Of a stretch of DNA of 64,000 nucleotides, positions 2,633 to 60,813 are shown piece after piece (position 1 is the first letter of the stretch; every line of letters starts with the position of its first letter). The position numbers and the translations under genes were made by a program. Under the pieces are notes generated by a model that made no database searches, was not told where the DNA came from, and saw nothing but the letters and a program-made list of their open reading frames with translations. Source of the stretch: Clostridia bacterium (GTDB lineage: Bacteria > Bacillota > Clostridia > UMGS1883); NCBI GenBank assembly GCA_045594665.1, contig JAZNYX010000053.1, positions 71,833 to 135,832 on the forward strand, given 5' to 3'.

Positions 2633-2661
2633 TTGATATTTTATGGAGATTGTGTTACAAT
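2633..2661 (+). promoter_or_regulatory. sigma-A promoter with extended -10
   Basis: TTGATA-17-TACAAT with TG extension. Confidence 0.7.
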
Positions 2662-2667
2662 AACTTT

Positions 2668-2877
2668 GCTAAACATAACTTAATATAATTAGGAAGTAGG
2701 AATATTTTATTTATAAGAATAATATATTCTCTTTTTCCCATACTATTTTTGACTTTGCAAAAAATGCGAATTCCATTAAATAGTATGGTAGAAATCCTGC
2801 TTCTATTTAAGTTATGTTTAGCGACAATCGGAGTTTGCGTTTTTCAGCGCATTAACTTCGGTTGGTGCGCTTTTTTT
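2668..2877 (+). ncRNA. Unassigned structured RNA, copy A (long rod plus antiterminator/terminator module)
   Basis: GCTAAACATAACTTAA(2668-2683) pairs with TTAAGTTATGTTTAGC(2807-2822) around nested stems; motif TGCGTTTTTCAGCGCAT 2836-2852; terminator 2846-2877. Confidence 0.7.
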
Positions 2878-2912: not shown

Positions 2913-3122
2913 ATGGACATGGTTAGTGTCGTTGTTGGTGCGTTGCTTACAGGTGCAATCATCGGTGCGATTCCTGCCATTTGCGGTGCGGTTAAAGGAA
3001 AAATAAGTTTGGCTGTAATCGGATTTTTTGCATGCTTGATATCCGCTTTGGTTTTGGGAATGATATTAGCAATACCTGTATGTGCGATCTTCTTGTGGTT
3101 GATATTTAAAAAAGAAAATTAA
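2913..3122 (+). CDS. Small hydrophobic membrane protein, 69 aa, unknown function
   Basis: SD AAGGAAGGGGG; MDMVSVVVGALLTG...LWLIFKKEN is almost entirely hydrophobic; followed by its own terminator. Confidence 0.75.
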   Translation: MDMVSVVVGALLTGAIIGAIPAICGAVKGKISLAVIGFFACLISALVLGMILAIPVCAIFLWLIFKKEN

Positions 3123-12826: not shown

Positions 12827-12903
12827 GTCGATATAGCTCAGCAGGATAGAGCGACCGCCTCCTAAGCGGTAGGTCGGAGGTTCGAATCCTCTTATCGACG
12901 CCA
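12827..12903 (+). tRNA. tRNA-Arg, anticodon CCT
   Basis: Acceptor GTCGATA/TATCGAC, anticodon arm ACCGC-CTCCTAA-GCGGT, GGTTCGAATCC, encoded CCA; 77 nt. Confidence 0.97.
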
Positions 12904-21271: not shown

Positions 21272-21310
21272 AAAATAAAAACGGACAGTCCCGATATGGA
21301 CTATCCGTTA
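21272..21310 (-). terminator. Terminator of the TPP riboswitch expression platform
   Basis: Minus strand AACGGATAGTCC..GGACTGTCCGTT followed by TTTATTTT. Confidence 0.7.
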
Positions 21311-21321
21311 AAAGCAAACTA

Positions 21322-21412
21322 TGACTTCCTACGGCGGCATTATCCGCATCAGGTTATAGGGTCGAAGTTTGATTACTTCCTCTCAGCCTGCCTCTACAAG
21401 CTCCCCTGTATA
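21322..21412 (-). ncRNA. TPP riboswitch
   Basis: Minus strand AGGGGAGC..GCTGAGAG..GACCC..AACCTGAT.CGGATAATGCCGCCGTAGGAAG upstream of thiW-thiMEDC; TTGACA-17-TAAAAT promoter upstream. Confidence 0.95.
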
Positions 21413-21628
21413 ATTTATTATTCGATTGTTTTTGATTTTACAACATATTTTCCTTGTTGTCAAGAGGAATTTCTATAAATGCGTCCTTCATATAAATTGT
21501 GTTTGTGGCAATACGTGTTTTCGGGGCTTTTGCCCAGTGGCATTTAAGATTGGAGTGGGAGGCAAATTCATAGAGGGAAATGTCGTGTGCCTTTCCATTG
21601 TGCGCCTTTTCATATGGGGTACATAATA

Positions 21629-45511: not shown

Positions 45512-45672
45512 AAAAAAGTGCACCAACAAAGTTGATGCACCGAAAAATGCACACCCTGTCTGATGCGACTCAAACTGAATTTTACACCTTCGTTGTATGC
45601 GTAAAAGAGCATGCATTTTTACCGAAATAAAAATACATACAACAAAGGTTAACACTATTCAATTTGAGTCGC
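45512..45672 (-). ncRNA. Unassigned structured RNA, copy C (no downstream ORF)
   Basis: Rod GCGACTCAAATTGAAT/ATTCAGTTTGAGTCGC; motif TGCATTTTTCGGTGCAT; terminator GTGCATCAAC/GTTGGTGCAC followed by T6. Confidence 0.7.
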
Positions 45673-45678
45673 AGGATG

Positions 45679-45707
45679 ATTATAACACATAAAGTAAAAT
45701 CTGTCAA
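45679..45707 (-). promoter_or_regulatory. Consensus sigma-A promoter for RNA copy C
   Basis: TTGACA-17-TATAAT with TG extension. Confidence 0.85.
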
Positions 45708-54282: not shown

Positions 54283-54395
54283 CAGCAAAGTAGAAGTTAC
54301 TGCGTTAAGTGTATGGGGGACGGGAAGTTGCCCCTATAACGAAAAAAAGCGAATTAAATTGCTTTTTGCGGTAGTAATTTCGCATTCCGTTGCTG
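54283..54395 (+). ncRNA. THF riboswitch
   Basis: AGTAG..TGCGTTAAGTG..GGACGGGAAGTTGCC..AACGAAA..TTGCGGT..TCGCATTCCG upstream of folT-folC. Confidence 0.9.
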
Positions 54396-58620: not shown

Positions 58621-58649
58621 TTGATTCTTTAAAAGAAAAGTGCTATACT
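58621..58649 (+). promoter_or_regulatory. sigma-A promoter with extended -10
   Basis: TTGATT-17-TATACT with TG extension. Confidence 0.7.
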
Positions 58650-58655
58650 AAGTAT

Positions 58656-58849
58656 GCTACACTCTTAATAAAATAGGTTAAGTGTATAAACTTGTATAAT
58701 TTTAATTCCGAGAAGGTACGCTATCGGTAAAAGCGTACTCTCTGACTGCTTCTCGGAAACGATGCAAGTTATAAGAGTGTAGCAACCTTATTGTCAGAGC
58801 CGTGCGTTTTTCGGTGCATAGCTCTGGAATAGGAGTTATGCACTTTTTT
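58656..58849 (+). ncRNA. Unassigned structured RNA, copy B
   Basis: Rod GCTACACTCTTA/TAAGAGTGTAGC with nested AACTTGTAT/ATGCAAGTT, TTCCGAGAAG/CTTCTCGGAA, GTACGCT/AGCGTAC; motif TGCGTTTTTCGGTGCAT; terminator 58814-58849. Confidence 0.7.
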
Positions 58850-58876: not shown

Positions 58877-59497
58877 ATGAAAAAAATTATTGGTTTATTA
58901 CTCGTGTCTTGCTTAATGCTTTCTGTCGGCATCACAACTTTTGCAAGTGATACAATTTATGTGACCCTTGACGGAAGTTACATAGAATTTGATGTAAGAC
59001 CTCAAATTATCAATGGTAGGACAATGGTTCCTATTAGAGCGATTTTTGAAAAAATGGGTGCGACAGTTGAATGGGATAGTAGTACAAGTTCCGCTATTTG
59101 TACAAATGGTGATACTGTCGTGAAAATGACAGTTAACAGCATGGATATGTATATCAACAATCAGGTAACAAAAATGGATATTTCTCCGGTTGTTATTGAT
59201 GGTAGAACACTTGCTCCTGCAAGATATGTTGCAGAGGCGTTTGGTGCAGACGTGCAGTGGGACCAAGACAGTAGTACAGTAATTATCCATTCGCATGCAA
59301 AAAATAATAATTCAACAACAAACATTAACTTAAATCAAGCAATACCCACAGATAATCAAGAAGAAACTGTTTATATAGGGGAAACAGGAAGTAAGTATCA
59401 TTATAAAACTTGTCGTACATTAAAAAATGGTGCATTTCCTATATCCCTTGATGAAGCATTAGCGCAGGGAAGAACTGCATGTAAGATCTGTCATTGA
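58877..59497 (+). CDS. Secreted copper amine oxidase N-terminal (stalk) domain protein with C-terminal Cys/His module
   Basis: Signal peptide; GRTMVPIRAIFEKMGATVEWD; tail VYIGETGSKYH..C..CKIC. Confidence 0.8.
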   Translation: MKKIIGLLLVSCLMLSVGITTFASDTIYVTLDGSYIEFDVRPQIINGRTMVPIRAIFEKMGATVEWDSSTSSAICTNGDTVVKMTVNSMDMYINNQVTKMDISPVVIDGRTLAPARYVAEAFGADVQWDQDSSTVIIHSHAKNNNSTTNINLNQAIPTDNQEETVYIGETGSKYHYKTCRTLKNGAFPISLDEALAQGRTACKICH

Positions 59498-59523: not shown

Positions 59524-60813
59524 ATGAAAAAAGTATATAGACTAATATTATCTCTTTTGATAATATGTTGTGCTTTTATACCAATATCTGTTTTGGCTTT
59601 AGAAACACCCACATTAGATATTGTGGTAAGTTTGCAGATTGATAATCCTATGATGGAAATAAACGGGGTGCAAAAAGAAATCGATGATGGTCGTGGAACA
59701 AAGCCCATTGTAAATAATGATAGAACGCTTGTCCCGATAAGAGCAATTATTGAAGCCTTTGGTGGAACAGTTGGGTGGGATAACAACACACGTACTGTAA
59801 CACTAACTTTGGAAGACGATCTCATAAAACTTACCATCGATAGTACGGTCGCCAACTTTAACAATCAGGGGACAACCCTTGATGTTGCACCTACGGTTAT
59901 TAACGGACGTACAATGCTCCCTATTCGCTTTATTGCAGAAAGTTTTAATTTGGGAGTTGCATGGGAAAGTAACACCCGTACAGTTTCTATTATTAGTAAC
60001 GGGTTTGATGATACTGAATATCAAACCATAAAAAATTTAGTTCCTGCATATAGTGGTCAGCCCTATGTTCAAATCAATGGTAATAAGCCTTTTTTTAAGG
60101 ATTATGAGATTATAGAAGGTTCTTTTGAATTTTATGCTGATCTTGATGAACTTGGACGATGCGATGTTGCAATGGCCTCAATAGGTACGGACTTAATGCC
60201 AACACAGGAACGGGAAAGCATCAGTTCAGTAACTCCTACCGGTTGGATCAACAACAGTTATGATGTTGTTGATGGCGGTTATCTTTACAATAGGTGTCAT
60301 TTAATAGGCTTTCAATTAACAGGTGAAAATGCAAACGAACGTAATTTAATCACAGGAACCAGATACTTAAATGTAGATGGCATGTTACCTTTTGAAAATA
60401 TGATTGATGATTATGTGGAAAGAACAAATAACAATGTGATGTATCGTTCAACGCCTGTCTTTACAGGAAACAACCTTGTTGCTGATGGCGTTCTGCTTGA
60501 AGCTTATTCAGTAGAAGATAATGGCAAGGAAATAATGTTCTGTATTTATTGTTACAATGTACAGCCAAATATAAGTATTGATTATTCAACGGGAGCAAAT
60601 GCATTGGCTGAGGAGAATTATAATACGCCTATTATTCCACAGCAGAGTATTCAACCCAATGATGCAACAAACACCATATACAAAGTTTACAGAACGCCAA
60701 CCGGAAAAAGGTATCATTTAGATGCCGATTGCGGTGGGAAAAATAGCTTTGAAACCACTTTGCAAAATGCAGCTGATTTAGGGTTAACTCCCTGTTCGAA
60801 GTGTGTAAAGTAA
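59524..60813 (+). CDS. Secreted stalk-domain DNA/RNA non-specific endonuclease (EndA/streptodornase-like) with C-terminal Cys/His module
   Basis: RTLVPIRAIIEAFGG; LDELGR, YNRCHLIG, NLITGTRYLN, YNVQP; tail TPTGKRYH..C..PCSKC. Confidence 0.85.
   Translation: MKKVYRLILSLLIICCAFIPISVLALETPTLDIVVSLQIDNPMMEINGVQKEIDDGRGTKPIVNNDRTLVPIRAIIEAFGGTVGWDNNTRTVTLTLEDDLIKLTIDSTVANFNNQGTTLDVAPTVINGRTMLPIRFIAESFNLGVAWESNTRTVSIISNGFDDTEYQTIKNLVPAYSGQPYVQINGNKPFFKDYEIIEGSFEFYADLDELGRCDVAMASIGTDLMPTQERESISSVTPTGWINNSYDVVDGGYLYNRCHLIGFQLTGENANERNLITGTRYLNVDGMLPFENMIDDYVERTNNNVMYRSTPVFTGNNLVADGVLLEAYSVEDNGKEIMFCIYCYNVQPNISIDYSTGANALAEENYNTPIIPQQSIQPNDATNTIYKVYRTPTGKRYHLDADCGGKNSFETTLQNAADLGLTPCSKCVK

Follow-up and report, generated by a model that had tools for sequence, protein, structure and literature searches.

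Organization of the locus

The analysed DNA originates from a Clostridia bacterium (UMGS1883), assembly GCA_045594665.1, contig JAZNYX010000053.1, positions 71,833-135,832 of the forward strand; the whole stretch of 64,000 nt is here called the window. On its plus strand a promoter was found at 2633-2661, in which the -35 element TTGATA (2633-2638) is followed by a 17-nt spacer and the -10 element TACAAT (2656-2661), giving 10 of 12 matches and carrying a TG extension at 2653-2654. The RNA predicted from this promoter, copy A, covers 2668-2877 on the plus strand; its start at G2668 was inferred from the promoter spacing and its end was set to the T-run. At 637-2540 on the minus strand, upstream of copy A and in divergent orientation, translations inspected by eye resembled a Fur/Zur-like regulator and the ATPase/permease ORFs of an ABC transporter.

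The 5' part of copy A was predicted to fold into a long rod closed by the stem P1, whose 5' strand (2668-2683, plus strand) pairs with 2807-2822. Fold and conservation both placed a 5' bulge of the AAUAU type, here called the hinge, after P1 at 2682-2691. Segment 2 (seg2, 2760-2774) comprises an A-run together with the apical hairpin's 3' strand and the bulge next to it. Segment 3 (seg3, 2830-2844), made up of the linker and UGCGUUUUU, can take either seg2 or seg4 as its partner. With seg4 it forms the antiterminator hairpin (2825-2864), which was the minimum free energy (MFE) structure of the 3' module with -19.6 kcal/mol. The intrinsic terminator (2846-2877, -15.8 kcal/mol) consists of a stem of 11 bp capped by a UUCG loop (2846-2871), followed by T7. 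Its 5' arm is at the same time the 3' arm of the hairpin just upstream, thus the two folds exclude each other, as a sequence-only reading of this DNA had stated. For the whole of copy A the MFE was -73.7, with a z-score of -10.35 against dinucleotide shuffles.

Downstream of the T-run an SD-like GGAAGGGGG at 2897-2905 precedes an ORF at 2913-3122 on the plus strand, which encodes a hydrophobic membrane protein of 69 aa; this protein had no Pfam match. A promoter of its own does not fit between the terminator of copy A and this ORF. Judged from this arrangement and the predicted folds, copy A would most likely be a cis-acting attenuator of the membrane-protein gene at 2913-3122.

Two more copies are present in the window. 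Copy B (45512-45707, minus strand; model match E 4e-25) is of a stand-alone type. Its promoter (45707-45679), read from the sequence as TTGACA (45707-45702), 17 nt and TATAAT (45684-45679), is followed by an RNA at 45672-45512 with the rod at 45672-45565, seg2 at 45620-45606, seg3 at 45557-45543 and the terminator at 45541-45518 plus T-run. The gene after copy B is convergent. Copy C (58621-58849, plus strand; E 2.9e-7) is of the leader type, with the promoter at 58621-58649, likewise read as TTGATT (58621-58626), 17 nt and TATACT (58644-58649), and an RNA at 58656-58849 containing the rod (58656-58783), seg2 (58729-58746), seg3 (58793-58811) and the terminator (58813-58843) plus T-run. On its 3' side an ORF at 58877-59497 (plus strand) encodes a signal-peptide protein with a Cu_amine_oxidN1 domain (E 6.1e-39). 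The gene beyond it, at 59524-60813 on the plus strand, combines Cu_amine_oxidN1 with a non-specific DNA/RNA endonuclease domain. The rods of copies B and C had z-scores of -8.48 and -6.00 against dinucleotide shuffles.

The description of these three loci as a single architecture was borne out by our analysis. The 17-bp-spaced, TG-extended sigma-A promoter was found in copy A and has equivalents in B and C, a GC dinucleotide is present 7 nt after the -10 element in all three, and the 5' end of the rod pairs with its 3' end over 16 bp in A, 16 bp in B and 12 bp in C. Three is not the total, as the genome contains 11 copies.

Distribution of the family

The motif TGCRTTTTTCRGYGCA shared by the three loci had three exact matches in the window, where 0.46 were expected with up to two mismatches allowed in the expectation. 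In relatives the 16-nt motif was matched exactly 42 times, in 26 of 61 genomes, and a reversed control pattern once. Approx. 7 of 34 inspected motif matches lay within coding sequence without the architecture and were regarded as chance. The covariance-model search that the sequence-only reading had proposed was performed with a model (R1) trained on 20 copies, whose structure comprised the closing stem, the apical hairpin and the terminator. In the 1.8-Mb genome of the source organism R1 detected 11 copies at E <= 4e-6, copy A being the match C53:74500-74708 (E 3.2e-8). Within the same order 69 of 87 genomes had matches, with a maximum of 15 per genome, and in a class-wide sample 39 of 151. 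Units arranged in tandem, every one with a promoter of its own, were frequent in both samples (in the order G035:C18, G073:C42 and G052:C71; in the class G176:C8 and G142:C5).

A search of plasmids for the family yielded no match, and a search of phages a single terminator-like match of 36 nt. Among 67 motif-carrying stretches from IMG/VR five were family members and the other 62 were not. These members (L269, L276 and L280/L301/L316) lie on contigs classed as viral, and their 3' neighbours are small membrane or lipoprotein ORFs. For GlgB the closest match, at 64% identity, came from an uncultured Oscillospiraceae MAG; comparison of 80 named loci for glgB synteny gave 0 matches.

The claim that the family is unassigned was upheld by Rfam 15. 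At the gathering score the only matches in the window were THF, tRNA and TPP, none of them at copies A, B or C. These matches, a THF riboswitch at 54284-54394 (plus strand, 86.9 bits), a TPP riboswitch at 21308-21417 (minus strand, 66.1 bits) and a tRNA at 12827-12900 (plus strand), served as internal positive controls. In the permissive E-value mode copies A, B and C matched only terminator-like hairpins or hairpins of the miRNA-precursor type, far below gathering. A search of full-text articles found no description of the RNA, which may already be listed under another name in supplementary motif lists. Nor is it described in the passages of PMC8040213 that were covered; the 3161 candidates of this paper, like motif lists of the Weinberg type, are given in supplements. 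The family thus appears to be a leader RNA that is widespread in gut Clostridia and apparently not yet catalogued.

Conserved sequence and structure of the rod

Each unit consists of a TG-extended sigma-A promoter, a rod of 93-173 nt, an antiterminator/terminator module and a U-tract. Rod length and rod sequence vary across the family. The earlier statement that the rods share no obvious sequence was nevertheless wrong, as a GCNACA-like 5' end, the AAUAU bulge and an apical GGUAAAAAUGCAUGCUCU-like block are common to the copies. In the apical A/U hairpin a GUGUAUUUUUUACC-like strand, X1, pairs with GGUAAAAAUGCAU, and a pyrimidine-rich bulge (GCUCUAUUUU-like) comes next on the 3' side. This conserved apex, whose 3' strand and bulge are complementary to the 5' arm of the antiterminator, had been missed in the sequence-only reading.

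P1 comprises 8-20 bp, and the AAUAU bulge sits on the 5' strand directly after it, at RNA positions of approx. 12-17. In 94 copies its AUA was at least 95% conserved, and none of the helices accounts for it. On the 5' side the hinge had a median size of 5 nt, on the 3' side of 1 nt. The helices explain almost every conserved base; what pairing alone does not demand are the AUA bulge and the strict conservation of the A-run and the U-run. The AAUAU bulge (TTAATAT in the DNA) could be a hinge, or a protein or ligand site. Promoter-proximal pause elements resembling a -10 box offer another possible role for this stretch.

In 88 of 89 rods the fold of the sense strand was more stable than that of the antisense strand, with means of -44.7 and -35.1 kcal/mol. 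Since the better fold is that of the transcribed strand, selection acts at the RNA level on the promoter strand. The interpretation of rod mismatches as G-U pairs on that strand thus extends from the three copies to the family.

Competing helices

The helices of each unit form a chain of four tiers, namely X1:seg2, seg2:seg3 (Alt), seg3:seg4 (antiterminator) and seg4:seg5 (terminator), in which neighbouring tiers share a strand and are mutually exclusive. The Alt pairing was proposed by RNAalifold unprompted, and it was 99% paired in 20 type-1 copies. Here seg2 is complementary over approx. 15-20 bp to seg3, i.e. to the linker and the 5' arm of the antiterminator (e.g. GGAGC..UGCAUUUUU); in copy A the duplex has 15 bp and -18.0 kcal/mol. 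In 31 of 31 copies the seg2:seg3 duplex had -16.5 to -24.6 kcal/mol compared with approx. -10 +/- 3 for shuffled sequences, a difference whose significance is overstated by shuffle statistics because the genomes are related. When the partners were exchanged between copies, seg2:seg3 reached -17.5 +/- 2.4 kcal/mol with the own partner and -12.6 +/- 4.3 kcal/mol with those of other copies, the own partner having a median rank of 8.5 of 90. X1:seg2 behaved likewise, with -12.4 for the own partner and -8.1 for the others.

Covariation was followed in an alignment of 94 copies, made with a model that did not contain the Alt helix. The first nine Alt pairs were almost always formed; at one pair UA (39), CG (28) and UG (22) replaced each other and at the next GC (60) and AU (24), and the distal Alt pairs were blurred by bulges in the alignment. 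In P1 changes on both sides were found in 10 of 10 pairs, with 99.7% of cells paired, and in the terminator double changes were found in 9 of 10 pairs, with 98.1% of cells paired. The inner stem of the antiterminator was 95% paired. Its outer stem aligned poorly (43-87% by column), being backed mainly by the folds of individual sequences and weakly by the columns. The U-run had been proposed to be a UUUUUC loop recognised by a trans factor. It is instead the 3' strand of the covarying helix with the apical A-run and bulge, and the conservation of the U-run and its flanks is therefore explained by intramolecular, long-range pairing.

Antiterminator and terminator are balanced in stability, with -15.6 and -16.9 kcal/mol in 75 gene-linked copies. 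In the MFE state 28 of these formed the antiterminator, 32 the terminator and 15 another structure. The 3' module favoured the antiterminator in copy A and in copy C (-21.6) and the terminator in copy B. The gene-less copies (B, a copy D elsewhere in the genome, and one on contig C7) have a terminator whose stability exceeds that of the antiterminator by 2-5 kcal/mol.

To free seg2 from the rod costs approx. 8.3 kcal/mol and Alt returns approx. 17.5 kcal/mol. In 86 of 89 copies this balance is favourable, provided that the rest of the rod persists, which calls for a pseudoknot. Compared with the rod fold, a nested fold containing Alt lost 20.1 kcal/mol on average, thus Alt needs either a pseudoknot or the removal of the 5' strand of the rod. 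The geometry of such a pseudoknot is doubtful, because only approx. 4 unpaired nt lie between P1 and seg3. A correlation between linker length and the difference in arm length (rho 0.51) was considered as a sign of a fold-back geometry and discarded, as both values are set by the predicted end of the duplex.

Genes downstream of the copies

The gene context was investigated for 94 copies in 90 fetched loci. In 79 of the 94 an SD sequence and an ORF start on the same strand followed within 150 nt of the U-tract, mostly after 15-50 nt, which leaves no space for another promoter; 15 copies had no nearby ORF. According to Pfam, small DNA-binding proteins of the MazE/AbrB type were the commonest family among the 79 ORFs (11), followed by LRR_5 (10), Cu_amine_oxidN1 (7), LRR_8 (7), MraZ (3), then M23, GDSL, SLH and YpsA with 2 each, and single cases such as AMP-binding, LytTR, glycosyltransferases and others. 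Many of the ORFs encode small membrane proteins without a Pfam family. The suggestion that read-through serves accessory envelope genes holds in part: many targets are envelope or secreted proteins (LRR_5, Cu_amine_oxidN1, SLH, M23, GDSL), but the top family is MazE/AbrB. An AbrB-type protein may be a candidate partner of the leader but hardly a dedicated one, since only 2 of the 6 PF04014 matches in the source genome are preceded by a leader.

In the source genome 8 of the 11 copies lie ahead of genes. Besides A and C these are the copies on contigs C31 and C63, which both precede monocistronic genes for AbrB-type proteins of 61 aa, those on C16 (AMP-binding enzyme) and C25 (YpsA-like protein), and those on C9 and C45 (membrane proteins). 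At G000:C31:36785-37190 and G000:C63:15520-15900 (L131, L132) a frame with a GTG start within seg3 is open through the terminator and in frame with the AbrB-type ORF; this may merely reflect paralogy of both loci.

Copies B, D and C7 have no gene downstream on the same strand. Here a conserved stretch, AATTGCAC...GTCGCCAAACA, extends the unit and leads to another strong terminator, after which the convergent gene follows, and copies B and D look like stand-alone RNAs. The sequence-only reading had offered an attenuator or a stand-alone small RNA; since most copies are gene-linked and some, i.e. B, D and C7, stand alone, both alternatives occur.

Discussion

In the trp-type attenuators the outcome is set by the 1:2/2:3/3:4 helix logic, and in the B. 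subtilis pyr leaders PyrR controls the choice among an anti-antiterminator, an antiterminator and a terminator. The B. subtilis infC leader is under L20 control (PMC1865079). With these three systems the present family has in common that promoter-proximal helices overlap and exclude each other, that the last of them is an intrinsic terminator and that an upstream anti-antiterminator decides. The units also display the general features of an intrinsic-terminator attenuator, namely an own promoter, no promoter before the ORF and a covarying G+C-rich hairpin with a U-tract. Unlike trp, pyr and infC, the family has the extra tier X1:seg2 and a long variable rod between seg2 and seg3; it contains no leader peptide, PyrR site or ribosomal-protein gene, and its regulon is heterogeneous. 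The Rfam search did not match the PyrR or L20 leaders at the copies. By analogy the logic of the family is that of a classical multi-helix attenuator, from which the extra tier and the inserted rod set it apart.

Other known RNAs were compared as well. Clostridiales-1, which Weinberg reportedly described in 2010 from gut Clostridia, is said to have two hairpins with conserved apical sequences capable of pairing with each other. By this description the two families resemble each other in host and in mutually pairing segments, but the Clostridiales-1 model (RF01699) misses every copy, its best hit in the genome lying elsewhere (E 2.1, 13.6 bits). 6S RNA (RF00013) was rejected, as the single hit in the genome, C41:9019-9205 with 91.5 bits, coincides with none of the copies. 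EutX and Rli55 are decoy or sponge RNAs with ANTAR sites, i.e. the same protein-binding element as in cis leaders. Likewise, the present module is found both as a gene leader and as a gene-less unit with a regulated first and a downstream second terminator, but without hairpins of the ANTAR-type dual-hexaloop kind.

Considering the predicted helices and the gene arrangement, we think that copy A, like most members, probably functions in cis, attenuating transcription from within the 5' leader of the next gene. RNA synthesis would start at the strong sigma-A promoter, and the first 155 nt in copy A (93-173 nt family-wide) would fold as the rod. At its apex X1 would hold seg2, in which the single-stranded bulge could act as a toehold. 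As long as the rod keeps hold of seg2, seg3 would be available for the antiterminator, and RNA polymerase would continue into the gene. Once seg2 is taken over by seg3, the terminator would form instead, with release of an RNA of approx. 160-210 nt. We infer this direction of regulation, as well as a signal that sets the access of seg3 to seg2. A straight rod would be expected to keep the two segments apart, because only a few unpaired nt join P1 to seg3, and bending at AAUAU or loss of the 5' strand would permit the exchange.

Given an attenuator, our leading guess, held tentatively, is that the deciding signal is a trans-acting RNA-binding protein on the rod or the AAUAU bulge. A small ligand appears possible with lower probability, and a purely kinetic signal, dependent on pausing or NTPs at the invariant U5 run, is rather unlikely. 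Among candidate proteins, Hfq has a match in the source genome but in only 12 of the 39 carrier genomes, which disfavours it as an obligatory factor, and CsrA had no match above the cut-off in the source genome.

A rival and rather unlikely reading is that the units are stand-alone small RNA genes with a constitutive terminator, which act in trans by base-pairing or as protein sponges and lie next to genes incidentally. This would agree with the lack of a same-strand gene in B, D and C7, with their conserved extension and second terminator before a convergent gene, with the higher stability of their first terminator and with the strong promoter owned by every unit, tandem arrays included. For copy A it is improbable, since 79 of 94 copies are closely followed by an SD sequence and an ORF without promoter space and copies A and C favour the antiterminator; the small RNA reading probably fits a minority subtype, not copy A. 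We also regard it as unlikely, if slightly less so, that the leader is a small-molecule riboswitch, e.g. for a second messenger, with the ligand at the AAUAU bulge or the linker, or in a compact structure formed by docking of the apex on the 3' tail. The layout of promoter, structured leader and antiterminator/terminator would suit it, as would the invariant, unpaired AUA bulge. Position, terminator/antiterminator output, multiple copies and tandems are shared with riboswitches that have transcriptional platforms (THF, TPP). The regulon, heterogeneous and rich in surface proteins, is similar to the c-di-GMP regulons of Clostridia, and the source genome encodes two GGDEF proteins and had no hit to c-di-GMP-I (RF01051) or c-di-GMP-II (RF01786) at E <= 0.1. 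Nearly all conserved nucleotides are however part of Watson-Crick alternative helices, no junction-type pocket or recognisable aptamer core is evident, the rod varies in length and sequence, and the gene context points to no ligand. As 8 of the 39 carrier genomes, 94-100% complete, had no GGDEF match at E <= 1e-5, c-di-GMP is argued against as the effector.

At the DNA level, inverted repeats of 12-16 bp around 100-150 bp, placed between a promoter and surface-protein genes, bring to mind phase variation by an invertible segment of the 5' UTR, as in cwpV of C. difficile. An operator or a mobile element (MITE) would also be conceivable, with the conserved TTAATAT around +11 to +17 as a candidate DNA site. 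We consider this highly improbable. Relative to the 3' module, the interior points the same way in all 94 full-model copies, the rod mismatches are G-U pairs on the transcribed sense strand, the covariation of seg2:seg3 utilizes G-U pairs too, and the copies within one genome have no common rod sequence, thus they are not recent insertions. Inversion and MITE were rejected on the uniform orientation and the strand asymmetry in the assembled sequences. A coding explanation was rejected by eye, as the frame of the 3' motif differs between A and B and an ATG is missing from the apical site of copy C.

If the attenuator reading is correct, a large, poorly studied group of gut Clostridia runs up to 15 transcription units per genome by one uncatalogued leader; among the products of these units are BspA-type LRR and further surface proteins, peptidases and AbrB-like small regulators. 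As a natural four-tier strand-exchange switch, the leader would be useful for studies of co-transcriptional folding and as a handle for finding its regulator or signal, and it would annotate many seemingly empty intergenic regions of 250 bp in metagenome-assembled genomes. The interest comes mainly from the breadth, the copy number and the unusual architecture of the family.

More speculatively, and with considerable doubt, the family may be a new and widespread clostridial RNA class in which the rigid variable rod, as long as it is closed and straight, is a spacer that parts the anti-antiterminator strand at its apex from the antiterminator strand at its base. A signal at the AAUAU hinge or the rod (protein, ligand or U5 pausing) would trigger a toehold exchange and switch a regulon of surface proteins and small AbrB-type regulators off or on, and the gene-less copies would be decoys. 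The terminated RNAs of copies B and D might be decoys for the same factor or small RNAs. The type-1 extension could be a product made only upon read-through. Past the first terminator, type-1 copies read AATTGCAC...(T)GTCGCCAAACA(G)AAT and then a strong hairpin, e.g. at 45511-45440 (minus strand) behind copy B and at approx. 1460-1400 (minus strand) of L001, and the extension repeats the 3' end of P1 and the start of the linker. Copy D itself (G000:C53:20909-21068, minus strand; L001) is divergent from rpoB, an arrangement kept together with the upstream sequence in several genomes of the genus.
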